Shown here: one piece after another, positions 2,716-19,423 of the stretch
Layout: every line of letters starts with the position of its first letter
How positions within the stretch are numbered: position 1 is the first letter of the stretch
Origin: K189A clade bacterium
GTDB taxonomy: Bacteria; Pseudomonadota; Gammaproteobacteria; Pseudomonadales; Azotimanducaceae
Direction of reading: 5' to 3'
Assembly: GCA_007571095.1 (NCBI GenBank)
Contig: RKSB01000122.1
Location: forward strand, 1 to 27,931
Length of the DNA: 27,931 nt
Position numbers and translations under genes: made by a program
The notes under the pieces: generated by a model
Told to the model about the DNA's origin: nothing
The model's database searches: none
What the model saw: the letters and a program-made list of their open reading frames with translations, nothing else

Positions 2716-4461
2716 TCAGGTGCTTTCGGAAAGGATGCCGGCTGGCATCTGACTGCTTGGGGGCGCATCGACTCTCACCGGAGTGGCCGCTTTTTTCTCC
2801 ACTCGATAGGCTCGGTCGGCTATCTGAATAAGCTTGTCGTGATGTGATACGGCCAGTATGGCCATGTTGTCTCGCTGCTTGAGATATTCAAAAATTCTCT
2901 GCTCGCTCTGGGCATCCAGTGCATTGGTGGCTTCATCCAGAATCAGCAGTCTTGGTGAGTGCAGCAGGGCTCTGGCAATCATGATTCGCTGCCTTTGGCC
3001 GCCGCTGAGCTTCAGGCCTCTTTCTCCTGCCACCGTGTGCACGCCGTTTTCCAGTTCGGCTATGAAGTCTGTCGCACCAACGGACTCCAGTGCTTCGGCA
3101 ACGTCTCTGTCGCTGAACCGAGATTCACCCAGCAGGATATTGTTGAGAATTGTGTCATGCAGCAGGATTCCTTCCTGCGATACATAGCCAATGTGTTGCC
3201 TGTAGAAGTCCTGTCGAACCTCTTTCATGTTGACGCCATCCACTCTGACCGCGCCTGCAGTGGGCTGTCGAAGCCCGATGATGAGATCAACAATGGTGCT
3301 TTTACCGGCACCGGAAGGCCCGAACAGAAAAGTCAGCTGGCCGAACTCAAGCACCATCGAGAGGTTTTCCAGCACAGAGTCCCGGTCGTCGTAACTGAAA
3401 AAGACTTCAGCCAGTTCAACGCCCCTGGAAAGCCTGATTTTCGATCTTCCCGAAGACCTTTCCGACTCGGCGCGAGCCTTGGCGATGCTCGACAAAACCG
3501 CAGAATAGGCGTTCTTGTCGACGAGTGCCTGTTGATACTGTTTTTGTGCTTTTCCGCCGCAGCTGAGAATGCGGTAGAGCAGTACAGCCAAAGTGACGAT
3601 GGAGGCCAGAGTGATGCTGAAGTAGCTGGTGGTCAGATAAATCCCTCCCAGTACGGTGAATACAAAAATGGTCTGTTGCAGGGCGTTCATGGCGGCGGCA
3701 CTGAGGCCCTCCAGTTTGAGTGCCGATTCAAGCTGCCGGGCATTGTTGCTGGTTGTCTCGATTACCAGACGTTCTCTCGCCATCGCCTTGAAGATCTTGA
3801 TCGAGTGAATCGCATTGGCCAGGTCTGCAACCAGAGATCTGTAGGCTCTTACCTGCCTTTTGCCGGCTTTGCGGGCAAGCCGGGTCAAGCCACTTAAAGC
3901 TATCCAGATGCCGGCAAACATGGCACTGACCAGCAGGGTTGCCTGCCAGGCGACTGCCAGTGCAGCCAGCATGTAGATAAGGGTGGTGATAAGCAGGGAT
4001 ATGGTCGTCATAAGGCGCAGGTAGCAACTGGATGAACGGCTGATTTCAATGGACATGGCATTGAGCAGTTCGCCACTGGACTGGCCTGCAAAATAGGCCC
4101 ACCGAGCATTGGCCAGAACGCCCAGCAACTCAAGCCGAAGGTGAGTCTCTATGCGGGCAGCCACATAAAAAATCTTCTTTTGTGCGAACAGTAAAAGCAC
4201 GCTTTTGAACATAAAGCCGGCCGCTATGACCAGAGTGATGTTACCCATCGTGGGCTCGACTCCGAACGTCCGAAAGGAGTCGAAAATCCATTCCGCCAGA
4301 CCCTCTTCTTCGCCTGTCACCTGGCTGTCATTGGCTCGCTCGGCGAGCGTCAGCAGCGGCAGAATGGAGGCCACACTCAAGCCTTCACTTACGTTGCCAA
4401 GCAAAAGCAACAGTAGCACCAACAGGCTCTGTCTTGGATAGGACAATAAAAAACCGGACAT
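2716..4461 (-). CDS. ABC exporter, fused TMD+NBD (MsbA-like lipid/glycolipid flippase family)
   Basis: Hydrophobic N-terminal half; GPSGAGKST, LSGGQRQRIMIARAL, LLILDEATNALD and SHH motifs. Confidence 0.9.
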   Translation of the reverse strand: MSGFLLSYPRQSLLVLLLLLLGNVSEGLSVASILPLLTLAERANDSQVTGEEEGLAEWIFDSFRTFGVEPTMGNITLVIAAGFMFKSVLLLFAQKKIFYVAARIETHLRLELLGVLANARWAYFAGQSSGELLNAMSIEISRSSSCYLRLMTTISLLITTLIYMLAALAVAWQATLLVSAMFAGIWIALSGLTRLARKAGKRQVRAYRSLVADLANAIHSIKIFKAMARERLVIETTSNNARQLESALKLEGLSAAAMNALQQTIFVFTVLGGIYLTTSYFSITLASIVTLAVLLYRILSCGGKAQKQYQQALVDKNAYSAVLSSIAKARAESERSSGRSKIRLSRGVELAEVFFSYDDRDSVLENLSMVLEFGQLTFLFGPSGAGKSTIVDLIIGLRQPTAGAVRVDGVNMKEVRQDFYRQHIGYVSQEGILLHDTILNNILLGESRFSDRDVAEALESVGATDFIAELENGVHTVAGERGLKLSGGQRQRIMIARALLHSPRLLILDEATNALDAQSEQRIFEYLKQRDNMAILAVSHHDKLIQIADRAYRVEKKAATPVRVDAPPSSQMPAGILSEST

Positions 4462-4487
4462 TTTTTCAGGCTGCTCTTTTCAGGCTA

Positions 4488-5573
4488 CTAATAAGAAAAC
4501 ATGCTCTTTGAGCGGGCGAGGTAGTACCGAAGAAGCCCCAGTACCGCCAGCATGCCACACGGAATCAAGCTGCTGACAAGAGGGTTGAGTTGCCAAAGCA
4601 GGCTGAATCCGGCGACAAGATGTGCTGTCAGAGCGCAGAATACACCAGTGCCTGCGCAGATCAAAAGCACTCCGCCCAGGTGCTCTCTTTGCGGTGTCGT
4701 CAGGACAAAAGCGGCACTCAGAAATATCATTCCGGCAATGGTCAGGGGAGAAAGGGCGCGCTGCCAGAACAGCAGGTGCGCCTGCCGATCCTCGGTATCT
4801 CTCTGAACGGCACTCCTGTGTCTGTTCCACAGTTCGCCGAGAGACAGGGTATGAACAGGCATCTCATATATTCTGCTTTCCAGATCGCTCACAGGTGGCT
4901 CCATTGTCTGGCTTTCCAGATAAAGGCTTTCGGCTTCATCCGATTCCAGCTGCTGTTTCATGACCTGTTCCAGCCGCCATTGTCCGTCCTCTTCAAAGGT
5001 CACCGAATTTGCTCTGGTCCATTTGCTCAGAGTGCCCTTGTCGCCCAGTTCGTAAATCACAAGATCGCCGGATCCGCCGCCTCGTTGAAGATCCGATATT
5101 CGAACAATCCTGTTTTTGTGTCGAAGCCAGAAGGCATCCTGATTGAGCAAACCGGCATGCAGGGTACGTTGTGCCTTGTAGAGTTCAGCATTCTGGTGCA
5201 AAGCGGGTGCTATCCACTGTTGAAGCAGAAAGACCATCAGGATCAGAGGCAGACTGCCGATGCCCACGGTGCCTGCAATATAGCCCAATCCTCTGCCGGA
5301 GGACATGATGCCGATAAGTTCGCTGTGCCGAACAAGCGAGCCGAGAGTCCAGAGAATTCCGAAGAGAGCAACGAAGGGAGCAACGCTTAAGAACTGGCGA
5401 GGCGTGGTCATCACGACGTACCAGACGGCATCCATGGTCTGGTAGGTGCCGACTCCTGTGTTGTTTAACTGTTCAATGAAGGTAAAGACATTGAAAAGCA
5501 GGCTGAAAGCGACCAGACAGAGTAGCTGCCCCTTGATGACTTCGCTGATTATGTAACCCGCCAGTACAGGCAT
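4488..5573 (-). CDS. lptG: LptG-family permease (YjgP/YjgQ family), probably a second, specialised paralogue
   Basis: Three N-terminal TM segments, LGSLVRHSELIGIMSSG motif, beta-rich periplasmic region (FWLRHKNRIVRI), three C-terminal TM segments; tandem with an lptF-like gene. Confidence 0.85.
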   Translation of the reverse strand: MPVLAGYIISEVIKGQLLCLVAFSLLFNVFTFIEQLNNTGVGTYQTMDAVWYVVMTTPRQFLSVAPFVALFGILWTLGSLVRHSELIGIMSSGRGLGYIAGTVGIGSLPLILMVFLLQQWIAPALHQNAELYKAQRTLHAGLLNQDAFWLRHKNRIVRISDLQRGGGSGDLVIYELGDKGTLSKWTRANSVTFEEDGQWRLEQVMKQQLESDEAESLYLESQTMEPPVSDLESRIYEMPVHTLSLGELWNRHRSAVQRDTEDRQAHLLFWQRALSPLTIAGMIFLSAAFVLTTPQREHLGGVLLICAGTGVFCALTAHLVAGFSLLWQLNPLVSSLIPCGMLAVLGLLRYYLARSKSMFSY

Positions 5574-5574
5574 A

Positions 5575-6666
5575 TCATCGACTCCTTAACCGACCGACCA
5601 GCAGCGGTCGCAGGTAGAGAAAGCCGGTTATTACTGCGAGCAGACAGGAGACCAGCCAGAGGCCGGGAAACCGGTTCAGATTACCCTGTTCGATCGAGTT
5701 CTGAGTAACGGATATCAGATAAAAGGTCACCGCATAGAGTGCGAGCCCGGAAAGTATTCTTATATTGGTACTTGAGCCTGGTTGGGCGCGACTCAGGGGA
5801 ACTGCCAGAACACACAGCAGAAAGCTGACAAGCGGCCAATTGAGTCGACTTTGCAACTCGGCGGCTTCCTTGTTGGACTCCCTGTTCAACAGGCTTGCGG
5901 TTGGAAGCGTCTTGCGTTTGTTGATGTTCAGCTGTCTGCGCAGGCCGTCTGTAGAGAAGTTCAGCTGATCGAAAACGCTCTCCCGATAAAACTGGCCATT
6001 CTCCCTGAGCCAGTAAATGGCCCCTGAATAAAGCTTGACATGGCTCTGCTCAATTGAACTCAAGGTCAGAATAGCTCTTTTTGCGGTAATAATTCTGGCT
6101 TCCTGAGGATCATCCATATAGAGAAAAATATCGGACATTTCCTTGGTTTCCTGATCAACGATACTCATTTCCTGAGTGCTGAGAACCCAGGAGTCTTCGC
6201 CGAGGGGCACAAAGGCACCCGAGTCCGACGGTGCAAACTCTATGCTCTGCAACAACCGCTCTTCAAGCTGATAAATCTTCTGGTAGGCCCAGGGCCTGAC
6301 CCACAAGGTCAAAGAGGCGGTCAACAGCATCAACACACTCGCCGCAAGTACGACCGGCTTGGCCAGCCGCCATTCGCTCCAGCCGAGGCACAGCATGACC
6401 GGAAGCTCGGAGTCGCGATACAGTCGATTGAGGCTCAGGACCACTCCAGAGTAAAAGGCACTCGCCAGCAGAATAGGGGCTGCAACCAGAAGGTTGTAAG
6501 CCAGTAGCTGCAACAGGGTAAAGGCCGAAGAATGACCCAGGGCGTTGGAGATTTCGTTGCCAAGAATGGCGGCCAGTGTGTAGCATAAGAAGATGACAAA
6601 CAGTATGGTCAGTGCTACTCCTGACGGCTTGATGGCCTGGCTCCATATATACTGGTCAACAACCAT
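5575..6666 (-). CDS. lptF: LptF-family permease (YjgP/YjgQ family), probably a second, specialised paralogue
   Basis: N-terminal MVVDQYI, LNRLYRDSELPVMLCLG motif, WVRPWA, AELQSRLNWPL..LAVPLS; 1-bp gap to lptG. Confidence 0.85.
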   Translation of the reverse strand: MVVDQYIWSQAIKPSGVALTILFVIFLCYTLAAILGNEISNALGHSSAFTLLQLLAYNLLVAAPILLASAFYSGVVLSLNRLYRDSELPVMLCLGWSEWRLAKPVVLAASVLMLLTASLTLWVRPWAYQKIYQLEERLLQSIEFAPSDSGAFVPLGEDSWVLSTQEMSIVDQETKEMSDIFLYMDDPQEARIITAKRAILTLSSIEQSHVKLYSGAIYWLRENGQFYRESVFDQLNFSTDGLRRQLNINKRKTLPTASLLNRESNKEAAELQSRLNWPLVSFLLCVLAVPLSRAQPGSSTNIRILSGLALYAVTFYLISVTQNSIEQGNLNRFPGLWLVSCLLAVITGFLYLRPLLVGRLRSR

Positions 6667-6765
6667 TTAGTAGAGGGTCGGTTACAGACACAACGACCCT
6701 TATTCTAGCCTTTGACCGAGAAGCTTGTGTCGGCATGGCGGTTTCTCTCTTTATGGTTTCTCTCT

Positions 6766-7872
6766 ATGGATTCCAGGTCTCCTGTTGTTTGGGTACTGCT
6801 CGGTGAAAAGCCGGGCGACAACAATCAGCTTGCCGTGCTGGCGGAAGATTTGGCCTGGCCTTACACAGCAGTGTCCCTGCGCTACAGAAGTTACGAACTC
6901 CTCACCAACCTGCTGCTTCGAAAAACCCTGCTTGGGCTGGCGGCCGGATCAGAACTTCAGATTCAGCCTCCCTGGCCTGACCTGATCCTGACTGCCGGCA
7001 GACGGAATGAACCCGTTGCGCGGTGGATCCAACAGCAGTCTCGACAGAGGACGAAGATAGTTCATCTGGGGCGTCCGTGGACACACCCCAGGCATCTTGA
7101 TCTGGTGGTGGTGTCTGGCCAATACCCTCGAGTACCCGCGTTACCCAATGTCATTCGCAACAGGCTTCCGCTCACTCGGTTTCCAGACGGCAAGCTGGCG
7201 GCGGCAAAAAAACGCTGGAAAAGACTGGAAGCCCTGCCATCCCCTCGCTATGCTCTGCTCATCGGCGGGCGCGACGGCGGTGCTCTGCTCGATAACAGGC
7301 GGGCGAAGGCTCTGCTGAAGGCAGCCAACAGCCTGGCTGAAGAGACAGCCGGCAGTTTGCTGATTACCACCAGTGCTCGAACACCCGCCGGCATCCAGAC
7401 ACTGTTTCCAGAGTGTATCAAGGTGCAGCATTCCACATTTTTCTGGGGTACTGAGGCACCCAACCCCTATTTCGCCTATCTCGCCTATGCAGATGAACTG
7501 ATCGTGACCGGAGACAGCATCTCCATGCTGGCTGATGCCTGTTTTACCGGCCGACCGGTGCATATTTTCAGTCTGCGCTCTGCGTTGCCAGAGGGCGAAG
7601 GAGAGCCTTGGTTCGCAAGATGTCAGCGCGGTGTTTTGTCGAGTCGGGCGATTCAGGATCGGATTGCCCGGCTGATCACACCCGCCCGTATGCACCGTGA
7701 TCTGGAGTCACTCCACCGCCACCTGATAAAAAGCGGTTCGGCGGTCTGGCTGGGCCAGAAGGCAGAGAAAAGCCACCGCCCTCTGTCGATGAGGCAAGAC
7801 CTGAAAAGGACATCGTCGGCGGTCAAGTCCCTGATGAGCCTGAACGACCAGGCACCTCCCCTGTTCGACTAG
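6766..7872 (+). CDS. ELM1-like (DUF1022) protein, predicted GT-B fold nucleotide-sugar-binding enzyme
   Basis: VWVLLGEKPGDNNQ, PWPDLILTAGRR, LLIGG, ITTSARTP, NPYFAYLAYADELIVTGDSISMLADA match the ELM1 family pattern. Alternative TTG start at 6712. Confidence 0.75.
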   Translation: MDSRSPVVWVLLGEKPGDNNQLAVLAEDLAWPYTAVSLRYRSYELLTNLLLRKTLLGLAAGSELQIQPPWPDLILTAGRRNEPVARWIQQQSRQRTKIVHLGRPWTHPRHLDLVVVSGQYPRVPALPNVIRNRLPLTRFPDGKLAAAKKRWKRLEALPSPRYALLIGGRDGGALLDNRRAKALLKAANSLAEETAGSLLITTSARTPAGIQTLFPECIKVQHSTFFWGTEAPNPYFAYLAYADELIVTGDSISMLADACFTGRPVHIFSLRSALPEGEGEPWFARCQRGVLSSRAIQDRIARLITPARMHRDLESLHRHLIKSGSAVWLGQKAEKSHRPLSMRQDLKRTSSAVKSLMSLNDQAPPLFD

Positions 7873-8819
7873 GCACTTCCCCTGCTGATAGACTTGAGCG
7901 GAAAACGAGGCCAGGCTTCCAGCGACTGAACGCTGGTCAGCAGTTTCGGAGCATCGTGGCGAATGTGATTGGCTGCCATTTCGGCTTCCAGTTCTTCGGC
8001 AGTGATGATGTTTCGCTCCATACATTCCTTGAGTAAGCCGAAGAAGAGTTGCTCCTGATTGGTATCGGGATGCTTTCTGTAGTGACCCAGAAAAGCGTAT
8101 TCGCCAAACAGCTTTCTCTTGAGAATCAACATCCAGCGAAGAGGCGGAAAGTAGCGGGAACGTTCCGCCAGACGCCAGTCTACCGGTAATCCGGTTTTCC
8201 ACGGCTGGGTGGCTCTTTTGGTGTTGTGCAGCATCTTGGTTGTGCTGCTCAGCCGGTCAAAATCATTCCACTCGTTTTCAAAGTGCCCAATGCTGTCTTC
8301 GTCTTCTTTCAGCAGGCAGATCCAGTCGTGGTAGTCGAGTTCACCCTTGAACATTGATTTGAAAGAGTCTTCGGCGTTCCAGTGCCGAAGCCGACTGTTG
8401 TCCAGCAGCATCACCGAGGTGGCTTTGCACCTGTGCTTCGAACTCAGAATGCTTCGAGAGCGCATTCGGCACAGAATGGCCTTGCCCTGCATATCCCTGT
8501 TCAGTAGCTGCCATATGTCATCGACGGCGAAAATATCCGGATCGATCACCACCGACCGGCCTTCGTAACCCATCAACTGGGGCGGCAGAAAGCGCAATGG
8601 AGTAAAGGATTGCAGGTCGTCGTACAGCCAGGTCCGCCAGACTCCATCACGCAGATAGTCTTTTCCGTCATGACTTTTGACCCAGTCATAGTCCTGAGTG
8701 CTGATGATTTTTACGGCAAAGCGGTCGGCGTGATTTGAATTCCTCTTCAGGGCATAGGCAGCTACTTTGGCACCCAGCATTTGCTTGGGATTGGTGTGTA
8801 TGAAGACGCAGTGATCCAT
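7869..8819 (-). CDS. GT-A-fold glycosyltransferase-like protein (GT8-like)
   Basis: SFTPLRFLPP followed by a DxD motif (VIDPDIF), TSVMLLDN and LHNT..TQPWK; GGAGG SD upstream of ATG 8819. Confidence 0.6.
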   Translation of the reverse strand: MDHCVFIHTNPKQMLGAKVAAYALKRNSNHADRFAVKIISTQDYDWVKSHDGKDYLRDGVWRTWLYDDLQSFTPLRFLPPQLMGYEGRSVVIDPDIFAVDDIWQLLNRDMQGKAILCRMRSRSILSSKHRCKATSVMLLDNSRLRHWNAEDSFKSMFKGELDYHDWICLLKEDEDSIGHFENEWNDFDRLSSTTKMLHNTKRATQPWKTGLPVDWRLAERSRYFPPLRWMLILKRKLFGEYAFLGHYRKHPDTNQEQLFFGLLKECMERNIITAEELEAEMAANHIRHDAPKLLTSVQSLEAWPRFPLKSISRGSA

Positions 8820-8935
8820 GAGGCCTCCAGAATAAGGGGAGTGTGGCAGCAGACAGACTTCAAAAAAGAATAGCACCTGCCTGCCTGTTCACCAAGTTTA
8901 CCCTGTTGCTGTACCTCTCTTTCTTTCAGCCTGCT

Positions 8936-9880
8936 TCAGCGGATAAGCTTCTTGCGCCAGAGTTTGAACAGAAAGCCCCACAGAAAAAGCCATGGCCATT
9001 TGTACACTCGACGGGGAATTTCAATCGGTTCACCACTGTGTCGCCCGATCTTGTAAGCCATATAGTCAAGGGCGTTATCGAAGGTAAAGACAGCCTTACC
9101 CAGCCTCAACAGGGAGAGCCACTTGCCGAGAAAGGCTCGAAGGCTCCATCGAACTTGCGATCTGATTCTGCTTGCAGGCTTCAGCATGCGATACCGGTCA
9201 GCGGACACTTTCTCCACTTTCTCGGGAATACTTTCAAGAAAGCTTTGGCCGGCAGCTGAAAAGTAGCTTTCGGATTGTCCGATCAGTTGGGTTACTCGTG
9301 CCTCCTTCTCAGGCCTCAGTTCGGCTCTGTAGCTGTATAACAGGGACTTGTGCCAGAGGTCGAGCGGGCTGAAAGTGGCTTCCATCAGCCCGAGCCCTTC
9401 GTTCAGCAGCCGACTGGTGGCGTCTGCCAGCATTTGATGAATACGGGCCATGTCTTCGGGTTTTTTGAGCCTTGCCAAAGCAACCGGCTGGGCCATTCGG
9501 CCGAAGATATGGCTGTGAAACCATTGGCGAGAACCGGCTTCCAGCTGCTGCATTGAAATGACAGCATACTTGCACCGAAACAGCCCGTCCGGTAGCTCCA
9601 GCTGACGAAAAAAGACATTCGGCGGCAACAGCCGCCCGACCAGCCTCAGGAGCTTTTTGTTGCTCCAGATACGGTCATAGCTTGAGACTATGACAAAAAA
9701 GTCCGCTATTCCGTCAACGACTTCCTCTTGCCACAGGCAGGAGCCATAAAACAAAACGGCTACCAGATCGTCTTCATAGTCTTTACAGACATCTTCCGCC
9801 AGTGCTCGAAGAGGCGCGACTATTCGGCCACTGGCTTCGAGCAAAGCCTGCTGTCGGAATTGGAACAGGTTGCGAGCCAT
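8936..9880 (-). CDS. Tam41/Mmp37-like phosphatidate cytidylyltransferase-fold nucleotidyltransferase
   Basis: Pol-beta-type NTase signature LFYGS...ADFFVIV, plus KYAV and GRMAQPV, which resemble Tam41 KYGV and GRLQKPV. Confidence 0.65.
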   Translation of the reverse strand: MARNLFQFRQQALLEASGRIVAPLRALAEDVCKDYEDDLVAVLFYGSCLWQEEVVDGIADFFVIVSSYDRIWSNKKLLRLVGRLLPPNVFFRQLELPDGLFRCKYAVISMQQLEAGSRQWFHSHIFGRMAQPVALARLKKPEDMARIHQMLADATSRLLNEGLGLMEATFSPLDLWHKSLLYSYRAELRPEKEARVTQLIGQSESYFSAAGQSFLESIPEKVEKVSADRYRMLKPASRIRSQVRWSLRAFLGKWLSLLRLGKAVFTFDNALDYMAYKIGRHSGEPIEIPRRVYKWPWLFLWGFLFKLWRKKLIR

Positions 9881-9886
9881 TCTGTG

Positions 9887-10828
9887 TCAAGTCAGCTTGA
9901 GAAACCCCAGAGGGCGGCTGCTGGATACCCTGACACCCTTTTCGGTGGTGCCAATCTCGCCGTCTATCACAAAATCTCCTGAAAACCCGAAGTGTGCATT
10001 TACAAAGGAGGTACTGTGGTAGTGCTCGGAGTTGGCCATCCATTTCGGTATTCGGTTGACCAGAATGGCCGTCAGGGCGGCCAACAGCTTTGGCGGCTGT
10101 TCGCCTATTTCTGTGTAGTAGATGGCTCCTCCTTCGGACCAGTGGTAGCGAAGACGAAAAAGCATTCTGTCCAGCGTGCTGGCTGCTATCACGCTACAGT
10201 TCAGCTGACGGGCGGGTCGGCCGTCCAGAATGACCTCGACAGGCAGGCCGCCGCCGGCGGTTCCTCTCAACATTCGGCCCAACAGCTTGAGGCCGCTCAG
10301 CATGCCGGCCCATTCCTGCCCGAGCCGAATAGCCTTGTCCTTGTTTTCGAAGTTGCGGACGGCTTCAGTGGTTACGCCTATGGCGAATACAAAACCAAAA
10401 CGGTCAGGCATACCGGTTGCCTCAATGCGCAACAGGCTGCGCCGTCGAACGGGCCAGGTGTTCGCTGGTCGAGCCGTTATCGCCTGAAGTCGGAAAAGAG
10501 ATCGCTCGGCACTCAGAAAGCCGTGCAGGTCGAGTGCCGACAGGTTGGTTGAACCAAAAGGCAGCAGGGCGATCATCGGCAAAGGGGAGTCCTCCTGCTG
10601 TTGAGACAACAGGGCGGTCAACACCGTGTGAACAGTGCCGTCACCGCCCGCAATGACCAGCAGTCGGTCGGCATCTGTGCTCAGTTTCGGCAACAGGCTG
10701 GTGAGTTCCTCTGCATGCGTGGTTTCGTGGTAGCCACTCGTCGCCAGCTTTTGCAGTGCCTTCCTGTGTCTGTTTCGGTATTTCCGCCCCTTTCCGCTGG
10801 CCGGGTTGACGATGCATTGAATCTTCAA
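9887..10828 (-). CDS. Diacylglycerol/sphingosine kinase family lipid kinase (candidate ceramide kinase)
   Basis: IVNPASG, IAGGDGT, LLPFGSTN and C-terminal IDGE motifs. Probable TTG start at 10828; the ORF-track extension to 11032 overlaps the divergent gene. Confidence 0.85.
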   Translation of the reverse strand: MKIQCIVNPASGKGRKYRNRHRKALQKLATSGYHETTHAEELTSLLPKLSTDADRLLVIAGGDGTVHTVLTALLSQQQEDSPLPMIALLPFGSTNLSALDLHGFLSAERSLFRLQAITARPANTWPVRRRSLLRIEATGMPDRFGFVFAIGVTTEAVRNFENKDKAIRLGQEWAGMLSGLKLLGRMLRGTAGGGLPVEVILDGRPARQLNCSVIAASTLDRMLFRLRYHWSEGGAIYYTEIGEQPPKLLAALTAILVNRIPKWMANSEHYHSTSFVNAHFGFSGDFVIDGEIGTTEKGVRVSSSRPLGFLKLT

Positions 10829-10861
10829 TGTGCTGAAATGTTTTCGCCGATCACCGCTTTC

Positions 10862-10867
10862 ATTATA
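10862..10867 (-). promoter_or_regulatory. Possible sigma70 -10 box for the kinase operon
   Basis: Perfect TATAAT on the minus strand ~35 bp upstream of the kinase start; no properly spaced -35 box seen. Confidence 0.3.
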
Positions 10868-10994
10868 TGCCCGCCCGGCATGAACAAGAGCTTTCGACGG
10901 TATTCTGGCGGTATCATTGATGCTTGTTCGGCCAGCATATAGACTCAAGTACCTCAGCGTCGAATGAAGCATGCCGAATGGAGAAAGAGTCCGA

Positions 10995-12002
10995 ATGAAC
11001 ACCGGCACAGCAAACCAGCCATTTCGGTTCACACATATTTCTGATCTTCATCTGACGAATCCGAAGGCTGCCCTGAAAAGCCTCTGGATGATTTGCAACA
11101 AGAGAGTGCTGGGCTATCTTTCCTGGCAATACAGACGTCGATTTCTTCATAGCCCCAGCGTCCTTGAAACGGTTGCCCGAGCAGCCTGTTCGGACGGCGA
11201 TCATCTGGTAATTACGGGTGATTTGACTCAAATAGGCCTGCCGGAAGAGTATCGACAGACTTGTCAGTGGCTGTCCCGACTGGGTTCGCCGGCCAACATT
11301 TCGGTTATTCCCGGCAATCACGATGCCTACGCCGGTTCATCCTGGCGAGAGTGCATTCAGTCGTGGAAACCGCACATGTCGGATCGAATGCCTGAGCAGC
11401 AAGACCAGCCTTTGTGGCCCTTTGTCAGGCTTCGAGGTCCGGTTGCATTCATCGGCGTGTCGAGTGCCGTGCCGTCTCCTCCTTTTTTTGCTTCCGGTCG
11501 AGTAGGGCAGGACCAACTGCAAAGACTCGAACAAATGCTCGCCGACCATCAGTCTCGGTTTCGCGTTCTGCTGATTCACCATTCGCCTGTTGCCGGCCAT
11601 GATTCTTTCAGAAAAAGGCTCTTTCAGCGGTCGTCTCTGGTCAGGATTTTGCAGGCCAGAGGCGTCGAGATGGTGTTGCACGGCCACAACCACAGGCCCT
11701 GCTGGAACGAATTGAAAACCGCTTCCGGCTACATTCCGGTGATAGGTGTGCCGGCTGCTTCGGCTGCGGAGTCAGGTCCCGACGAGGCTTCGTTGAGCCG
11801 GCGAGGGAGCTACTATGCCTACCAGGTCGCCCAAACCGACGAAGGCTGGTGTCTGGAAGTGACTGCACACCGGCTGAATGCCGAAGGGACGGCGATGGAT
11901 CTTGTCTGGTGCAGACGTTACGGTCGCCTGCCGGCCTTGTCGATTAACTCCTGGATCATCTCCCAGTCGGCCAGGCTGTCTACATCGACGGCCGCCAGTT
12001 GA
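10995..12002 (+). CDS. Calcineurin-like metallophosphoesterase (CpdA/Icc-like)
   Basis: All five motifs present: ISDLH, TGDLT, PGNHD, LIHH, LHGHNH. Confidence 0.9.
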   Translation: MNTGTANQPFRFTHISDLHLTNPKAALKSLWMICNKRVLGYLSWQYRRRFLHSPSVLETVARAACSDGDHLVITGDLTQIGLPEEYRQTCQWLSRLGSPANISVIPGNHDAYAGSSWRECIQSWKPHMSDRMPEQQDQPLWPFVRLRGPVAFIGVSSAVPSPPFFASGRVGQDQLQRLEQMLADHQSRFRVLLIHHSPVAGHDSFRKRLFQRSSLVRILQARGVEMVLHGHNHRPCWNELKTASGYIPVIGVPAASAAESGPDEASLSRRGSYYAYQVAQTDEGWCLEVTAHRLNAEGTAMDLVWCRRYGRLPALSINSWIISQSARLSTSTAAS

Positions 12003-12700
12003 TCGGGAATCAGGATCGGCTTGACTCGACAGCCTGTATAGCGGGATGCTCCCGTAAAAATATCCTGTAGCGAAGACCGGCCCATAGCAAACTTCAGCAA
12101 CGGCCACCAGCCTATGGCCGAGACGATTCGTAATGGCCTTTTTCGGTGCTGCTGAATTTCCCCCCATTTGTTTACCGCCTGAAGTGCCTCCGGTGTCATC
12201 AGGGCGAACAGGTTGCAGCTGCTGTAATCGCCATCGGTGCAACGATAGGAGGTTCGATTGCAGGCGATAGACGGATTTGCCTTTTTGTCGAGCCTGACCA
12301 TTCCGACGGTGCAATCGGCATCGCTTGCCAGAGACGAATTGCGAAAAGTGTCTACCCAGTCTCTCTGCAACAACGCAGAGTCGCCGGTGGTCACCAGTAG
12401 CGGCGACTCCAGCCCCAGCCTGTCAATGCCTTTGGCGACACTTGACGGCAGGGATTTTTCACCCTCTATCCAGATTGAATCGGGCAGCTGCTCAAAGTCC
12501 TTGTGTCGTCTGAGCAGGTGAATATTGCCGATGATCCTGATTCGAGACAACCACGGCAGGCTTTCCAGTGTGTCATACACTCTTCGCAGCATGGATTTGT
12601 CGCCGATCTGTGCAAGGGCTTTGGTGGCCACCTGAGCCCGCACGGCAACCGCATCCTGAGCCGTTCTCCTGCCGGCGAGTATCAGTGCGTTCCAGGTCAT
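11918..12700 (-). CDS. MobA-like NTP transferase (nucleotidyltransferase), 260 aa
   Basis: ALILAGRR at the N-terminus, KAL..IGDKSML, LLVTTGD, C-terminal DVDSLAD. ATG 12700 overlaps the upstream TGA (ATGA), indicating translational coupling. Confidence 0.8.
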   Translation of the reverse strand: MTWNALILAGRRTAQDAVAVRAQVATKALAQIGDKSMLRRVYDTLESLPWLSRIRIIGNIHLLRRHKDFEQLPDSIWIEGEKSLPSSVAKGIDRLGLESPLLVTTGDSALLQRDWVDTFRNSSLASDADCTVGMVRLDKKANPSIACNRTSYRCTDGDYSSCNLFALMTPEALQAVNKWGEIQQHRKRPLRIVSAIGWWPLLKFAMGRSSLQDIFTGASRYTGCRVKPILIPDQLAAVDVDSLADWEMIQELIDKAGRRP

Positions 12701-13890
12701 TGGCGAGACTCGGGTTGCAGTAGTTTTCGATACATTCGATAAGTCTTGTGTACTCTGCCGTTCGTCATCTTTACAGCGGACGAGCCTGCCTGGCGATTGC
12801 TCTTCAGTATCCAGGACATTTCGACACTGTGCATACGTCTTTGTCGGGCGTGCATGAAGATCGCCGAAAGCAACGCCTGAATTGCATGGGTACCGAGTGG
12901 AGTTTTGTGAAACTTTTTTCTGATACCCATCAGCGGCAGGCGACCCGTTTGAATAGCATTGGTGCCGAGGCACCAGAGCAGTTTCAGCCACCCCAGCGGC
13001 AACAGCCGACTCTTCAATTTATGCAGGACCTCGTTGAGATTGGGAACCAGCATCGCAAAGCCGACCGCTTCGGATTCGTATTCGGCGATTTGAATCAACT
13101 CCGCCTTGCCCAGCAGACGTACCTTTTGAAGGTTTTCCCTGAGTTCTTTTTCGCCGAAGGGTACAAATCCCCAGTTTTCGCTCCATGCATCGTCAAAGAT
13201 GCCCTTTATTGTTCGATTTTCGTCGGCCAGCCGGCTGTAGTTGATTGGGCGTACAACCAGATTCTCGTGCCTGTATCCAGACCTTCTGTTGAATACTGCG
13301 AGCATTCGTTTTTTGGACTCTTCCAGCCTTTTCAGGGCGAGTTCGGTTTCAGCGATAAAGGCCAGTGCTTCGGCGGCGGTTTCGTAGCCACAGGCCTCAA
13401 CTCTGGGAGCAAACCAGGGAGCTGTGTGTGGAGTCATCAGGTAAGGAGGAGACTCAAAACCTTCCACCAGCAGTCCGATCTCCTGATTGATATTCAGGTT
13501 CATGGGCCCGACAATCTCCTTTATGCCTCGCTCTGCCAGCCAGGACTCAGCCGTTTTCAGCAAAACCCTGAAGGTTTCCTGATTGTCTTCGGCTTCAAGT
13601 AGCCCGAAGTAGCCGCGATTTCTGTTTTGGCTCTTTTCCAGGTCGTCAATCTGTGCAGAAATTCTGCCGACCGGACATCCGCCCCTGTAAGCGATCCAGG
13701 CCTGCCATCGACCGTGTTCGAAAAAGGGATTTCGTCTGGAAAAAGCCAGCCACCTTTCCCAGTAGAGCCTGGGTACCCAGTGAGGATCGTTAAGGTAGAA
13801 CTGACCTGCAAGCTGAATGAAAACCTTGCGATGTGCCGAGTTTGATACCGCCTGAATGGCAACTTCTGACTCCGGTATCGGATGAATCAT
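12697..13890 (-). CDS. bcerS: GNAT-fold N-acyltransferase, bacterial ceramide synthase (bCerS)/YghO family
   Basis: Y..DPHWVP, NPFF, GRISAQID, GYFG, GPMNLNINQEIGLLVEGF, FDDAWSENWGFVP, EMSWIL and KTYRMY are typical of this family; genomic context agrees. Confidence 0.75.
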   Translation of the reverse strand: MIHPIPESEVAIQAVSNSAHRKVFIQLAGQFYLNDPHWVPRLYWERWLAFSRRNPFFEHGRWQAWIAYRGGCPVGRISAQIDDLEKSQNRNRGYFGLLEAEDNQETFRVLLKTAESWLAERGIKEIVGPMNLNINQEIGLLVEGFESPPYLMTPHTAPWFAPRVEACGYETAAEALAFIAETELALKRLEESKKRMLAVFNRRSGYRHENLVVRPINYSRLADENRTIKGIFDDAWSENWGFVPFGEKELRENLQKVRLLGKAELIQIAEYESEAVGFAMLVPNLNEVLHKLKSRLLPLGWLKLLWCLGTNAIQTGRLPLMGIRKKFHKTPLGTHAIQALLSAIFMHARQRRMHSVEMSWILKSNRQAGSSAVKMTNGRVHKTYRMYRKLLQPESRQ

Positions 13891-14386
13891 GCTCAAGGTT
13901 TTTTTGCATAAGGCACCAGGAAGGGCCTACTCCGGCCATTTATAACAGTTTTTGCCTGTTTCCGCCTGAAAAAAACCTGCCCGAACCGACAATAGCCCGC
14001 TTTTGCTTCTCAAGAATTCTGATTGGATCCTTGCCACAGTTTGTTTGATGACTCAGGGCAAAGGGTTTCCGAAGAATCTGTTTGTCGAGTCGCTGGCGGA
14101 ACCTTCCACTCAAAAAATTCGCAGAACAGACTCGCTCCTGAGCAAATACCTAACAAAATATGGAATATTTAAGAAACTATTGAGAAATTATTTTGATGTG
14201 CTAAAATATCTGCTGAAATTCGCACCCTCCTGCCGAAGAAATTCTCTGAAAATACAGGGATAATTGAAAGTTAGCAGAAGCAGGTTATAGGAAGGCTGCA
14301 GGAGGAAGGTCCTGCGGAAATAAAGAATCAGGAAGCAAGAGATTACAGAAAGCAACGGAGAAGTTTTGAGTTTTGGAGGTGAAGCT

Positions 14387-14449
14387 ATGCCCGGCCAATT
14401 CGGCGACACTTCAGTGTTTTTTTGTGGCAGGTCTTGCTTCTCCTGTTAA
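14387..14449 (+). CDS. Possible 20-aa small ORF (MPGQFGDTSVFFCGRSCFSC)
   Basis: Strong SD GGAGGTG at 14375-14381, 5 nt before ATG; no homology evidence. Confidence 0.25.
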   Translation: MPGQFGDTSVFFCGRSCFSC

Positions 14450-14463
14450 TTAACGGCTATAAT
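14434..14463 (+). promoter_or_regulatory. Putative sigma70 promoter for the acyl-AMP ligase/reductase operon
   Basis: TTGCTT (14434-14439)-N18-TATAAT (14458-14463), ~140 bp upstream of ATG 14604. Confidence 0.55.
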
Positions 14464-14603
14464 TGCAGGATTAATCTCTTGAATGGGGGATTGACCTGAG
14501 GAAATCCTCGGTGAAGGCCGCCTCAACGAAAGTGGGCTGAGGGGTCTTGACCGGAGTATTCTGACTGCTACGCCGAGTGGCAGCAGTTCGGGGGCAAAGA
14601 ACA

Positions 14604-16433
14604 ATGACAAGTCGAACGAGTATAGACGACGACGGATTGAACAATTCCGAAGGGCTGGCCCCCTTGCATCTCGATGATGCGAGTACAAAGCCAGAATTGC
14701 TGGTTCCAACACCCACTCTGAGTGGCATACCTCTTCGTCTCGGCGGCTTCAAAACCCTGTCCGAAGCACTCGACTATGCGGCCGAAGGCGAGGCCGGTTT
14801 CAACTTCTACAATGGTCGGCACGGTGCACTCAGCGACGTGCTCAGCTACAAGAAGATCAGGACCGAAGCCCTGTCAGTAGCCCGCAAGATGAGAGCCTTT
14901 GACCTGCCTCGCGGAAGCAGGGTCGCCATCATCGCCGACACCAAGCCCGAATTTGTCATCTTCTTTATGGCCTGCCAGTACGTGGGGCTGATACCCGTCC
15001 CGTTGCCTGCCGCCGTCAACTTTAACGGACGAGAAGCCTTCATCTATCAGACGAGGCTGTTTGTGCAGGATTGTGAAGCCAAAATCTGCCTCGCCTCAGA
15101 CGAATTCGTCAAGTATCTGGCCGAGGCCTGCGTCGGCCTCAAGCTGGCCTTTCAAGGTGCCTGCCGAGACTTCTATGACCTGCCTGAAGACCCGAGGCCA
15201 CTGGAACCCACCAGTCCAAAGGAAAACGCTTATATCCAGTACACCTCAGGTAGCACAAATTTTCCAAGGGGAGTGATTATAGAGTCGGGTTCTGCGATGT
15301 CCAATCTGTCCAGAATTCTACAAGACGGAATTCAGGTGAGGGTTCCGGATCGTTGTTTTTCCTGGTTGCCTTTCTATCACGACATGGGCTTGGTGGGCAA
15401 AATGATGTCAACGCTGGTCGGGCAGGGCAGCATTGACTGCCTCGACAATCGGAAATTTGCCATTCGTCCAAACATCTGGCTCAAGCTGATGAGCGAAAAC
15501 AAATCGACCATCTCTTTCAGCCCGCCTTTTGGCTACGAGCTTTGTCTGCGCCGACTGCACCCGGAACAGGCTGAACAGTACGATCTGTCGCACTGGCGTA
15601 TAGCGGGTGTAGGTGCTGAGATGATTCGAAGCTCGATACTGAATCGCTTTGCCGAAGCTCTGGAGCCGGCAGGCTTTAGAAAGGAAGCCTTCACACCCTG
15701 TTATGGCATGGCCGAAAGTTCGGTTGCGGTGACCTTCTCGAAGCTTGGCAAGGTGTTTGATACCGACAGCATAGACCGTGAAAAGAGTGCTACCGAGGGA
15801 ATGGCTGTTCAGGGCCCTGCCGAGGATGCAGGTACTCGAACTTTTGTTGCCTGCGGATACCCGCTGCCCGATCACGAGATTCAAATTCGGGACGCCGACC
15901 ATCGCCCCTTGTCGGCCCGCCACATAGGCAGGGTTTTTGTTCGAGGTCCCAGCATTATGTCGGGGTACCTCAACAAGCCTGAATTGACCAGTGAGGTTTT
16001 GGTCGACGGTTGGCTGGATACGGGTGATCTTGGTTACTGTACCGAGGATGGTCAGCTGTTCATAGTCGGTCGTGGCAAGGACATGATCATCATCAACGGT
16101 CGCAACATCTGGCCACAGGATCTGGAGTATACCGCCGAGGCTCAGCCGAGTGTCCGCTCAGGGGACGCTCTGGCCTTTGGCTTGTCTGACAACGGCGAAG
16201 ATTCGGAAAAGGCGGTTATTGTTATCCAGACTCGAGAGAAGGATGCAGAAAAACGTCAGAACCTGATCCGGTCGATCAAGCAAACAATCTTTGAGCACTC
16301 GGGTATTCAGTGTCACGTCAAGCTTGTACCCGCTCACACTCTGCCTCGAACCTCTTCCGGCAAGCTGTCTCGCTCAAAGGCTCGCTTCAATTTCATTCAG
16401 TCTAACGACGGTGCCGAAGTAGCAAACGGCTAA
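14604..16433 (+). CDS. Fatty acyl-AMP ligase / acyl-ACP synthetase (FAAL)
   Basis: YIQYTSGST, SWLPFYHDMGL, CYGMAE followed by a FAAL-type insertion, DTGDLG, GRGKDMIIINGRNIWPQDLE, PRTSSGK. Alternative GTG start at 14577. Confidence 0.9.
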   Translation: MTSRTSIDDDGLNNSEGLAPLHLDDASTKPELLVPTPTLSGIPLRLGGFKTLSEALDYAAEGEAGFNFYNGRHGALSDVLSYKKIRTEALSVARKMRAFDLPRGSRVAIIADTKPEFVIFFMACQYVGLIPVPLPAAVNFNGREAFIYQTRLFVQDCEAKICLASDEFVKYLAEACVGLKLAFQGACRDFYDLPEDPRPLEPTSPKENAYIQYTSGSTNFPRGVIIESGSAMSNLSRILQDGIQVRVPDRCFSWLPFYHDMGLVGKMMSTLVGQGSIDCLDNRKFAIRPNIWLKLMSENKSTISFSPPFGYELCLRRLHPEQAEQYDLSHWRIAGVGAEMIRSSILNRFAEALEPAGFRKEAFTPCYGMAESSVAVTFSKLGKVFDTDSIDREKSATEGMAVQGPAEDAGTRTFVACGYPLPDHEIQIRDADHRPLSARHIGRVFVRGPSIMSGYLNKPELTSEVLVDGWLDTGDLGYCTEDGQLFIVGRGKDMIIINGRNIWPQDLEYTAEAQPSVRSGDALAFGLSDNGEDSEKAVIVIQTREKDAEKRQNLIRSIKQTIFEHSGIQCHVKLVPAHTLPRTSSGKLSRSKARFNFIQSNDGAEVANG

Positions 16434-16538
16434 AGGCTGTCCGCCGCTTCCTGACAACGGCGTGAGCCTTCGCAAGCTCCTTTTTCGAGACGACTTCCTG
16501 CTTGTTGTCCGAAGTTCTTTTCTGTTTGCGGTTTTTTC

Positions 16539-17462
16539 GTGCAGCCTCGCCTGACGGTTGCCGTTACCGGTGCTACGGGATTCATAGGTCGCCACCTGAT
16601 TGCGGCACTTTCGGCGGCTGAATATCGAGTCAAGGCTCTGACTCGTCATCGCCGTCCGCCTGATTTACCAGTAGAGTGGGTTCGGGGCGACCTTGGCCAG
16701 CCGACCAGCCTGATGCAACTGGTTGAGGGCACCGATTACGTGATCCATTGCGCAGGCCAGGTTCGAGGCCTGCTTTACCGGCATTTTGCCGAGACCAATG
16801 TCGCCGGTTGCCGAAATCTGGTGCAGGCTGTCTCTCAATGCTCTTTCCGGCCTTGCCTGCTGATGATCTCCAGTCTGGCCGCCCGGTCTCCGGAATTGTC
16901 TGCCTATGCCGCCAGCAAGCGCGACGGAGAAGTTTTTTTGCAGAAGGCGACCGATCTGAACTGGACGATTTTTCGGCCAACCGCAGTCTATGGCTCCGGT
17001 GACTCCGAGCTAATGCCTCTGTTTAACGCCGTTGCCCGAGGTCTGATTCCCCGAATTCGACACGATGGCAGGCTCTCTCTGCTTTATGTTGAGGATCTGG
17101 TGGCTGCAATCACGGCCTGGTTGTGTTCTCCACAACAGGCTTTCGGTAAAATTTACGAGCTTTCTGATGGCCGATGCAATGGCTATAGCCTGGATGAAAT
17201 CATTGCCCTCATTCTGCGACTCAAGCAACCTGTTCGAGTGCCTGTTCCTCTGCCCAAAAACCTGTTGCTGGGAGTGGCCAGAGTAAACGCTGCTCTGGCC
17301 TCTGTTGTCGGTTACTCGCCCATGCTGACACCGGGCAAGCTTCGGGAAATGTGGCATCCAGACTGGACTTGTTCTTCCGATGGCGGTTCGGATTTTGGCT
17401 GGTCGCCCGAGTATCAGCTTGAGAAGGGCCTGAGTGCCGCCTGGTCGAACGAGTCGTCCTGA
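16539..17462 (+). CDS. NAD(P)-dependent epimerase/reductase (extended SDR); ceramide reductase CerR-like by context
   Basis: TGATGFIG Rossmann motif, ISSLAA, YAASK (YxxxK), RPTAVYG. The family call is strong; the CerR assignment is contextual. Confidence 0.8.
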   Translation: MQPRLTVAVTGATGFIGRHLIAALSAAEYRVKALTRHRRPPDLPVEWVRGDLGQPTSLMQLVEGTDYVIHCAGQVRGLLYRHFAETNVAGCRNLVQAVSQCSFRPCLLMISSLAARSPELSAYAASKRDGEVFLQKATDLNWTIFRPTAVYGSGDSELMPLFNAVARGLIPRIRHDGRLSLLYVEDLVAAITAWLCSPQQAFGKIYELSDGRCNGYSLDEIIALILRLKQPVRVPVPLPKNLLLGVARVNAALASVVGYSPMLTPGKLREMWHPDWTCSSDGGSDFGWSPEYQLEKGLSAAWSNESS

Positions 17463-17550: not shown

Positions 17551-17973
17551 TCAGTCGTCGATCAGGGCGGTCGCAGTGCCTCTGAGCACTTCCTGGTCTT
17601 TCTGGTTGACGGTGACCACGGAAAGGTTGACCAGCAGTTCACCCTCTTCCTGAAGTATTTCCTCCACGGTAGCGGTCGCGGTGAGCGTGTCGCCCGGCCA
17701 TACCTGGCTGGTAAAGCGAACTCCGTACTTTCTCAGTCGTCCGTCTCCTACGTAATCGGTCAGCATTTTCGCAGTCATACCCATGGTCAGCATGCCGTGT
17801 GCGAAGACCGAAGGGTATCGGGCCACCTGTGTGGCGAAAACCTCATCCGTGTGGATTGGGTTGTAATCGCCCGAAGCCCCTGCGTACTGCACGAGCTGAG
17901 TACGTTTCAGGTCTTTGACCAGCTCCTGCGTGCAGGTGTCGCCTGTTTTTAATTCGCTTGCTTTTAATGCCAT
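17551..17973 (-). CDS. MaoC-family (R)-enoyl-CoA hydratase/dehydratase
   Basis: YAGASGDYNPIHTD hydratase motif, AHGMLT, VRFTSQVWPGDTL. Confidence 0.9.
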   Translation of the reverse strand: MALKASELKTGDTCTQELVKDLKRTQLVQYAGASGDYNPIHTDEVFATQVARYPSVFAHGMLTMGMTAKMLTDYVGDGRLRKYGVRFTSQVWPGDTLTATATVEEILQEEGELLVNLSVVTVNQKDQEVLRGTATALIDD

Positions 17974-17979
17974 GGTTGC

Positions 17980-18486: not shown

Positions 18487-18579
18487 GAACAAACATTCCT
18501 GTAATTTTCATTCACTTGATGGCCCGATCTTTTTCAAAGTCAGCACTTAAACCCTGTGTACTCTATCAAAACCGGAAGA

Positions 18580-19344: not shown

Positions 19345-19423
19345 TAACAAGCCCTCAGGAAGGAGATTATTTGTTCCGCCTTAGTGTACATCATTAGCAA
19401 CTGCCATTAATAACCGCCAATAA

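Follow-up and report, generated by a model that had tools for sequence, protein, structure and literature searches.

A sphingolipid gene island with a variant head-group and export module in a gammaproteobacterium lacking detectable lipid A genes

Introduction

What does a gammaproteobacterium place in its outer membrane when the genes for lipid A are not found in its genome, and how much of the answer can one gene island hold? The question is raised by a 27,931-nucleotide stretch of DNA from a K189A clade bacterium (contig RKSB01000122.1; 'the window' below, always at its full length), in which 12 contiguous lipid-related genes occupy positions 2716-17462. The window is the entire contig C26 of a 1.68-Mb metagenome-assembled genome (MAG; 224 contigs, 92% complete), and near-identical DNA is present in sponge-metagenome runs. 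We think it likely that this island encodes the bulk of a pathway for a ceramide-anchored, phosphorylated and glycosylated outer-membrane lipid that is handed to the Lpt machine in a bacterium without lipid A. The ceramide-based lipid probably takes the place of lipopolysaccharide (LPS) in the outer membrane of the host.

LPS is regarded as nearly indispensable in Gammaproteobacteria, and its natural replacement by sphingolipids is textbook knowledge only for Sphingomonas; Caulobacter needs mutations. The best-described locus is Caulobacter CC_1152-CC_1168, whose 17 genes include five ceramide genes, the ceramide kinase CC_1160 and the Tam41-like CC_1161, and which also carries second copies of LptF and LptG (CC_1155/1156) and of LptC, and a MOP flippase (Olea-Ozuna 2024, PMC11324152). 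The same locus is treated in a 2026 preprint by Uchendu and in Stankeviciute 2022 and Zik 2022 as cited in these two works. Contiguous orthologous clusters occur in Azotobacter vinelandii and Pseudomonas luteola (PMC11324152), and this kind of cluster, gammaproteobacterial examples included, is thus already published. Four things were not met in the published clusters and papers that we compared: the variant head-group and export module, which is widely distributed; the fact that the host and related Gammaproteobacteria naturally lack lipid A synthesis; the exclusive retention of LptF2G2; and the link of the cluster to KdoT-type enzymes and retained synthesis of 3-deoxy-D-manno-oct-2-ulosonic acid (Kdo). 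A literature search returned nothing relevant on sphingolipids in Halieaceae or in LPS-less sponge Gammaproteobacteria, a result bounded by that search and no proof of novelty.

Results

Layout of the island

The original prediction, made from the DNA letters, described 12 contiguous lipid-related genes in five or six short convergent or divergent units. Open reading frames (ORFs) of the named families are indeed found at these positions, in six alternating transcription units, as follows.

2716..4461, minus strand: half-size ABC exporter, transmembrane domain plus ATPase (PF00664 and PF00005)
4488..5573, minus strand: LptG2-type permease (PF03739, E 8e-50; TIGR04408, 224 bits against a cut-off of 240)
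5575..6666, minus strand: LptF2-type permease (PF03739, E 3e-45; TIGR04407, 228 bits against a cut-off of 230)
6766..7872, plus strand: ELM1-like GT-B transferase (PF06258, E 2e-54; AlphaFold2 pLDDT 90)
7869..8819, minus strand: GT8-like GT-A glycosyltransferase, 316 aa (AlphaFold2 and Foldseek; without a Pfam or NCBIfam match)
8936..9880, minus strand: Tam41-like nucleotidyltransferase (PF09139, E 8e-6, 25.9 bits against a cut-off of 24)
9887..10828, minus strand: DAGK-type lipid kinase (PF00781, DAGK_cat, E 4e-16)
10971..12002, plus strand: calcineurin-like metallophosphoesterase (PF00149, E 2e-14)
11918..12700, minus strand: MobA/CofC-like nucleotidyltransferase (PF12804, NTP_transf_3, E 3e-9)
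12697..13890, minus strand: YghO/bCerS-type GNAT N-acyltransferase, a bacterial ceramide synthase by homology (reciprocal best match to YghO of E. coli BL21)
13891..14603, no strand: divergent intergenic region between the bCerS and the aasR-cerR units, with only short overlapping ORFs of at most 86 aa
14604..16433, plus strand: fatty acyl-AMP ligase, AasR-type acyl-ACP synthetase (NF006624, 731 bits against a cut-off of 600)
16539..17462, plus strand: extended short-chain dehydrogenase/reductase (SDR), CerR-type 3-keto reductase (PF01370, E 5e-23)

Start codons were refined by comparison with L014, a 25-kb Logan contig from the closest relative, which moved those of the ELM1-like (6766), GT8-like (8819), kinase (10828), MobA-like (12700), GNAT (13890) and fatty acyl-AMP ligase (14604) genes and shortened the GT8-like ORF from 335 to 316 aa. 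Because the starts were refined by this homology, apparent large gene overlaps vanish. What is left is compact: the MobA-like gene, with its ATG at 12700, and the GNAT stop share 4 bp, likewise in L014; the phosphoesterase and MobA-like genes share an 85-bp convergent overlap, identical in L014; the kinase and Tam41-like genes lie 6 bp apart on the same strand; and the ABC exporter gene is co-directional with lptG2 and 27 bp downstream of it. No credible ORF lies in 13891..14603 between bCerS and aasR, and this divergent layout is common to the window, L014 and E. coli BL21, where yghO faces aasR.

L014 carries all 12 genes, unchanged in order and orientation and with proteins 48-70% identical, along with the same flanking genes on the rpoE side. 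Since the full order recurs at this identity and core parts recur in all 80 of 80 sampled gammaproteobacterial loci described below, the gene arrangement is not a matter of chance.

Ceramide synthesis genes

To judge the orthology of the ceramide genes we used not the Caulobacter proteins themselves but the E. coli BL21(DE3) counterparts, yghO, aasR, epi, acpR and spt, which are listed beside CC_1154 (bCerS), CC_1165, CC_1164 (CerR), CC_1163 and CC_1162 as corresponding ceramide genes, YghO and CC_1154 together as acyl-CoA N-acyltransferase genes (Padilla-Gomez 2022, PMC9386255). The GNAT is the best match of YghO in both directions (36.5% over 386 aa, E 3e-91), as are the fatty acyl-AMP ligase of AasR (43%, E 2e-160) and the SDR of the BL21 reductase epi, the CC_1164 counterpart (45%, E 2e-70; the next protein in the genome reaches only E 9e-13). 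The two remaining members were found outside the window, on the 2.7-kb contig C155: Spt (NF047599, 563 bits against a cut-off of 500; 49% identical to BL21 Spt, E 1e-132) and an acyl carrier protein (ACP; 40% identical to AcpR), each again best in both directions. For the four longer proteins the E-values span 1e-63 to 1e-160. The ACP ORF ends 3 bp upstream of spt, and a second ELM1-like gene adjoins. The five-gene ceramide pathway (Spt, AcpR, AasR, bCerS and CerR) is therefore, as supported by homology, predicted to be encoded in the host genome, and the GNAT and SDR do not fall outside the bCerS and CerR groups.

Since Spt and ACP lie on another contig, the island is not self-contained, as it had been called; a third ELM1-like gene and a sulfotransferase gene (C10), lptC-lptA-lptB (C220) and lptD (C36) also lie elsewhere. 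The GNAT has 6294 homologues, the closest of which, at 52% identity, is that of L014. A look-up in the ESM Atlas returned for it only generic 'N-acetyltransferase' and 'YghO-type regulator' clusters.

Two versions of the cluster

In an alignment-based scan with one genome per species, homologues of the GT8-like protein were found in at least 580 genomes, with titles naming Halieaceae, Haliea, Halioglobus, Mangrovimicrobium sediminis, Thiogranum, Thiohalobacter and many 'Pseudomonadales' MAGs. We kept 80 loci found through this gene, in which 10-kb flanks and contig ends limit the following counts: ELM1 was seen in 72/80, a sulfotransferase in 59/80, Tam41 in 44/80, LptF in 43/80, the ABC exporter in 40/80 and Spt in 27/80, with Spt and ACP beyond the ABC gene. 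The common order, with arrowheads for orientation, is cerR< aasR< bCerS> mobA-like> phosphoesterase< kinase> tam41> (ELM1>) GT8-like> ELM1< lptF> lptG> ABC> ELM1< acp> spt>, and the cluster is thus widely conserved in Gammaproteobacteria.

Among relatives in the family of the host the cluster comes in two versions. Variant A (genomes G015, G012 and G013) is Caulobacter-like, with a 398-aa CpgA-like protein carrying PF01066 and a MOP flippase. Variant B, found in the window, L014, G003, G007, G011 and all 80 sampled loci, has one to three GT8-like copies, two or three ELM1-like genes, usually a sulfotransferase, and the ABC exporter.

Absence of lipid A genes

LpxC, LpxB and WaaA (PF03331, PF02684 and PF04413) were not found in the host genome, each of them being present in 17-19 of 20 relatives. 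A tblastn search of the host with LpxA, LpxB, LpxC, LpxD and WaaA of G007 gave only an LpxD match of E 4e-4 (on C210), everything else having E > 0.1. In G007 the gene order at the relevant site is skp-lpxD-fabZ-lpxA-lpxB-rnhB-dnaE; on host contig C213, rnhB (3589-4188), fabZ (4212-4658) and skp (4670-5263) abut with gaps of 23 and 11 bp. Because these flanking genes abut on an intact contig, the absence of lpxD, lpxA and lpxB is not an assembly gap. Contig C217 has ftsZ and secA, and at the expected lpxC site on it, between ftsZ and the gene next after lpxC in relatives, there is 0.9 kb (5373-6292) without a long ORF. This segment could be an eroded lpxC remnant; two short collinear matches in it (E ~0.09 in a 1-kb search) are not significant, and we rejected it as an identified decayed gene. 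The closed genomes G011, G062 and G093 also have no LpxC, and G011 (3.0 Mb) has no LpxB or WaaA either.

A single, sphingolipid-type LptFG pair

Of the Lpt machine, the host keeps LptD next to SurA (C36) and LptC-LptA-LptB (C220, with the LptB-like ATPase encoded after lptC-lptA), and BamA is on C213. The original prediction rightly recognized LptF and LptG in the island, but they are not extra paralogues: they are the only LptFG pair of the genome. In phylogenetic trees the sole pairs of the window and of G011 fall within cluster-linked LptF2 (support 98/96) and LptG2 (98/94) clades; LptF and LptG of E. coli K-12 lie outside these clades, as do the second pairs that relatives encode away from the cluster. 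The pairwise matches run the same way, with the window LptF at 28% (E 1e-29) to LptF2 of E. coli BL21 versus 22% (E 2e-12) to LptF of K-12. LPS-producing relatives (G015 and G007) have two pairs, the host and G011 one. Since the sole pair falls in the cluster-linked clades, the LPS-type LptFG pair is gone and the sphingolipid-type pair is kept, as in Sphingomonas. Sphingolipid transport depends on LptF2G2, which bind LptB (preprint 10.64898/2026.04.12.717747).

These results bear on a simpler account, in which LptFG is the ordinary LPS exporter, the incomplete bin has simply failed to capture the lipid A genes and the host has both LPS and sphingolipid like Caulobacter. The draft state of the MAG, the LptF and LptG scores just under the NCBIfam equivalog cut-offs and the presence of lptBCAD and kdsA would fit it. 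However, five dispersed genes are missing, three of them from between flanks that adjoin on one contig; the same absences recur in closed genomes from a sister genus; and the LptFG pair groups with the sphingolipid type rather than with E. coli or the unlinked pairs of relatives. We consider this account hardly credible.

Lipid A loss and the cluster across the family

A survey of 151 genomes of the host's family divided them into 16 without and 135 with LpxC. Those without are all six genomes of g12 (three of them closed), all five of g17, the host, two of g44, one of g54 and one of g10. The variant-B GT8-like marker was present in 15 of the 16 LpxC-less genomes versus 22 of the 135 LpxC-bearing ones, and a bCerS matching the window's protein in 10/16 versus 45/135. 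The direction of this pattern agrees with what was found in Caulobacter, where lipid A can be dispensed with thanks to anionic sphingolipids (PMC9393093).

A reader might instead regard the loss of LPS as symbiont genome reduction of the kind known from insect endosymbionts, with the sphingolipid cluster as an ancestral leftover that replaces nothing; the host genome is indeed small (1.68 Mb versus 2-6 Mb in relatives) and comes from a sponge metagenome. Yet the LpxC-less g12 relatives have genomes of 2.8-3.5 Mb, the reduced genome still spends about 15 kb on the pathway, the Lpt bridge and LptD are kept with no known substrate besides LPS or sphingolipid, and LPS loss tracks the cluster within the family. 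Reduction without replacement is accordingly very unlikely in our estimation.

Separately, G003 (C10, C24, C46) has an LpxC match lacking the first 64 model positions, no LpxB and only a weak WaaA-like match, and its second LptFG pair is fragmented while the cluster-linked pair is intact; this genome looks midway through LPS loss.

Genes for a phosphate-linked head group

Between the ceramide genes and lptF2 lie four genes of families found in the Caulobacter locus, for which the comparison is at family level, with synteny in addition for the kinase and Tam41-like genes. The kinase, here called CpgB, keeps a conserved position in the clusters of relatives and is a putative counterpart of the ceramide kinase CC_1160. 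The Tam41-like nucleotidyltransferase, here called CpgC, directly follows it in the window, L014, G011, G007, G003 and most of the 32 variant loci holding both, and is likewise a putative counterpart of CC_1161. In Caulobacter both CC_1160 and CC_1161, the latter with a Tam41-like domain, are required for ceramide phosphoglycerate (PMC11324152). The MobA/CofC-like protein, whose gene follows bCerS in all relatives examined, belongs to the same family as CC_1153, and the phosphoesterase, 62% identical in L014 and present in both cluster variants of relatives, to that of CC_1158. On account of the kinase and nucleotidyltransferases we predict a phosphate-linked head group.

In Caulobacter, CC_1159 (the CDP-alcohol transferase CpgA), CC_1158 (the phosphoesterase), CC_1153 (MobA/CofC-like) and CC_1152 are needed for or contribute to CPG2; CpgA is a CDP-alcohol phosphatidyltransferase with an N-terminal extension and is needed for it (PMC11324152). 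An enzyme of the CpgA type was not met in the host genome, whose three PF01066 proteins are PgsA, a second PgsA/Cls-like fragment and PssA, and the CpgA-like protein of G015 has no match in the host genome or the 80 variant loci.

Glycosyltransferases, sulfotransferase and Kdo

The genome encodes three ELM1-like paralogues, on C26 (the window), C155 and C10. Fold comparisons were made with Foldseek on AlphaFold2 models built from alignments of natural homologues. For the ELM1-like protein of the window (pLDDT 90) the top matches are GT-B proteins (BshA, MGD1, MurG and UDP-GlcNAc 2-epimerases; E 4e-8 to 1e-6). An S-x-R-T motif is present in 35 of 36 aligned homologues, its S and R in 36/36; the window copy reads SART and the C10 copy SRRT. 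The only characterized bacterial ELM1-like protein is KdoT of Acinetobacter baumannii (A1S_2903), a CMP-Kdo transferase that adds a third Kdo to Kdo2-lipid A and needs the second arginine of its SRRT (PMC12856342). The likeness of the island protein to KdoT is drawn from family (PF06258), GT-B fold and S-R/x-R-T motif. The acceptor of KdoT, however, cannot exist in the host, because lpxA/B/C/D and waaA are absent. The window protein is thus a candidate head-group glycosyltransferase and possibly a Kdo transferase. Among 14 control genomes PF06258 occurs only in Caulobacter vibrioides.

The GT8-like protein has no Pfam match, GT8 included, and no NCBIfam match. The top matches of its model (pLDDT 79, pTM 0.83) are all GT-A enzymes of the GT8 type, namely GlyE, a GT8 protein, LgtC, XXYLT1, LARGE1 and glycogenin (E 5e-8 to 1e-4), and D-P-D and H..T.R.TQPWK motifs are invariant. 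When PDB sequences were searched with profiles of the GT8-like and ELM1-like alignments, nothing above noise emerged. Further head-group genes may lie at C10:1703-3970 (L154), where the third ELM1-like gene (SRRT) is followed by a PF00685 sulfotransferase; the same sulfotransferase gene stands immediately upstream of the GT8-like gene in G007, and its homologues make up the 59/80 count above.

Kdo synthesis is kept. KdsA of the host scores 399 bits (cut-off 314), the gene preceding lptC encodes a KdsC-like phosphatase, and the closed LPS-less genomes G011 and G062 retain both KdsA and KdsB. The persistence of Kdo synthesis without lipid A or WaaA, together with KdoT-family enzymes inside the cluster, suggests that Kdo may be placed on the sphingolipid.

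The GT-A and GT-B genes also bear on the identity of the lipid. Kdo and sulfate occur in capsules too. One could hold that the cluster makes only the known ceramide phosphoglycerates of the Caulobacter type and that the ELM1-like, GT8-like and sulfotransferase proteins act on a capsule or exopolysaccharide or in the glycosylation of proteins. The Caulobacter cluster has the same kinase, Tam41, MobA-like and phosphoesterase families, and there the kinase and CC_1161 suffice for ceramide phosphoglycerate (PMC11324152). But the glycosyltransferase genes stand inside the cluster, between Tam41 and lptF2, in a placement kept across hundreds of genomes; we saw neither a polymerase gene nor one for polysaccharide export among the island genes; the CpgA-type transferase, on which the second phosphoglycerate depends, is missing; and variant B carries its own exporter in the lptF2G2 operon. 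We regard this alternative as unlikely. A head group unlike that of Caulobacter, proposed originally from the two glycosyltransferase-like genes, is supported at the level of folds and gene content, because a CpgA-type enzyme and a MOP flippase were not found in the genome or the 80 loci and GT-A and GT-B enzymes are linked to the cluster.

A candidate flippase

The ABC gene directly follows lptF2-lptG2 in the window, L014, G011 and G007, and in these same four layouts an ELM1 gene is divergent from lptF. Its product does not pass the MsbA model (TIGR02203, 208 bits versus 602); the best family is HepA (265 versus 725). The variant-A clusters of G015, G012 and G013 showed no homologue of it and have a MOP flippase instead; conversely, no MOP-type flippase of the CC_1166 type is present in the island, and the MOP protein of G015 has no match in the host genome or the 80 variant loci. 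For Caulobacter, published work only suggests CC_1166 (MOP-type) as the flippase. We propose the ABC exporter as a candidate inner-membrane flippase for the sphingolipid. The genome has a second, MsbA-related ABC exporter on C168 (L030; TIGR02204, 654 bits versus 780), which is cut by the contig end and adjoins a 161-aa ORF; a homologue of the exporter lies beside kdsB in relatives.

Discussion

A proposed pathway for a probable LPS surrogate

The gene set can be read as a pathway. By homology, AasR would charge the dedicated ACP (AcpR, C155) with a fatty acid, Spt (C155) would condense the acyl group with serine to 3-oxosphinganine, the YghO/bCerS-type GNAT would N-acylate this product and CerR would reduce it to dihydroceramide, which the DAGK-type kinase is predicted to convert into ceramide-1-phosphate. 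The Tam41-like protein (by analogy with CDP-diacylglycerol synthase), the MobA/CofC-like protein and the phosphoesterase may then build or activate a phosphodiester-linked first head-group unit, which the GT8-like GT-A and ELM1-like GT-B enzymes could extend with sugars, possibly Kdo, and to which the C10 sulfotransferase may add sulfate, and with it charge. The ABC exporter would flip the lipid across the inner membrane, and LptB2F2G2 with LptC, LptA and LptD would deliver it to the outer leaflet, standing in for LPS. The sugar, sulfate, flipping and delivery steps are proposed from gene content, folds and synteny. That the organism makes and exports a phosphorylated, head-group-modified ceramide-like lipid, as first suggested, thus gains support from the ceramide orthologues, the kinase and nucleotidyltransferase families and synteny, all at the level of sequence.

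Several observations weigh against this pathway or narrow it. All steps beyond ceramide-1-phosphate, and the structure of the lipid, are what we infer from the genes. The Tam41 match is barely above its cut-off (25.9 versus 24 bits), the GT8-fold matches have modest TM-scores (0.35-0.55), and the GT8-like and ELM1-like enzymes could decorate another molecule. The host genome is a 92%-complete MAG in 224 contigs, and KdsB was not found in it; C181 ends 72 bp past the gene that precedes kdsB in G011, and since this syntenic site coincides with a contig end we did not score KdsB as lost. In the family survey, the five g17 genomes (G016, G065, G096, G120 and G142) are LpxC-less and have the GT8-like gene but gave no bCerS match with the window protein as query; Spt lies a few kb from their GT8-like gene, and their N-acyltransferase may be different or divergent. 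LpxC-less G091 has neither Spt nor the GT8-like gene. Finally, related genomes are not independent, so the 15/16 association overstates the number of loss events.

A broader and more tentative proposal, to which we give rather less than an even chance, is that several marine gammaproteobacterial lineages, among them the host and two whole genera with closed genomes, gave up lipid A, that their LPS surrogate is an undescribed ceramide phosphate bearing acidic sugars (Kdo via ELM1) and sulfate, flipped by the ABC exporter and moved by LptB2F2G2-C-A-D, and that the variant cluster is what enables LPS loss.

Comparison with known systems

With Caulobacter the host shares aasR, cerR, acpR, spt and bCerS, the kinase, Tam41-like, MobA/CofC-like and phosphoesterase families, and LptF/G in the locus. 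Not in the host's set are CpgA (CC_1159), CC_1152, the HIT protein, the TagF-like CC_1167, the MOP flippase and LptC2; added are three ELM1-like GT-B proteins, the GT8-like GT-A protein, a sulfotransferase and an ABC exporter in the flippase position. Caulobacter makes both LPS and sphingolipid, whereas the host is without a lipid A pathway.

In this last respect the nearest parallel is the naturally LPS-less Sphingomonas. It is without LpxC, LpxB and WaaA, its one LptFG pair is encoded in the sphingolipid region, and LptA, LptD and LptE are retained (preprint 10.64898/2026.04.12.717747). The host matches it (e.g. S. wittichii) in lacking LpxC, LpxB and WaaA, in a sole LptFG linked to sphingolipid genes and in keeping LptA and LptD. 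Sphingomonas belongs to the Alphaproteobacteria and the host to the Gammaproteobacteria, and because the classes differ, LPS loss in the host was probably independent. The glycosphingolipids of Sphingomonas carry their sugars directly on ceramide, whereas a phosphate-linked head group is predicted here.

A. vinelandii, P. luteola and E. coli BL21 are standard LPS producers. Like the host they are Gammaproteobacteria with bCerS divergent from aasR-cerR and an LptFG pair in the locus, in their case a second one. The first two organisms have clusters of the Caulobacter type, with orthologues of 13/17 genes including CC_1159 and CC_1152 (PMC11324152), and the E. coli BL21 locus (yghO-spt-lptG-lptF, L170; PMC9386255) has a MOP-type 'lipopolysaccharide biosynthesis protein' gene and no ELM1, GT8 or ABC gene.

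If the reading of the island as a source of an LPS surrogate is right, the solution known from Sphingomonas recurs in another class, probably independently and with closed genomes as witnesses, and its correlate is a head-group module present in hundreds of marine genomes. The cluster would offer a candidate for the flippase of bacterial sphingolipids, place the little-studied ELM1/KdoT family in a second biological context and explain why Kdo synthesis and the Lpt bridge survive where lipid A does not. The cluster is also carried by cultured relatives, such as Mangrovimicrobium sediminis SAOS 164 and Halieaceae WMMBA7 (loci L098 and L138), allowing the lipid to be determined. For a sponge associate, an outer membrane free of endotoxin would be a testable way of escaping recognition by its host.

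Genes flanking the island

Directly past the ABC exporter, at 802-2460 (plus strand), is a solitary AAA_21/AAA_15 (OLD/AbiEii-like) ATPase gene, where relatives have ELM1-ACP-Spt; it may be the mark of an insertion that split the cluster. To the right of cerR, at 17551-19350 (minus strand), are genes for a MaoC dehydratase, a FAS1-type dehydratase subunit and a FabG-like reductase, 75-87% identical in L014 and so conserved well above the island itself. We rejected them as island members, as they are conserved only in the closest relative and are not adjacent to the cluster elsewhere; the FabG-like homologue adjoins kdsB in G011 and G003. Further on, 4 kb from the island, an ordinary gammaproteobacterial rpoE-rseA-rseB-rseC-degP-lepA block occupies 21530-27857 (plus strand), with rpoE in the same place in L014.

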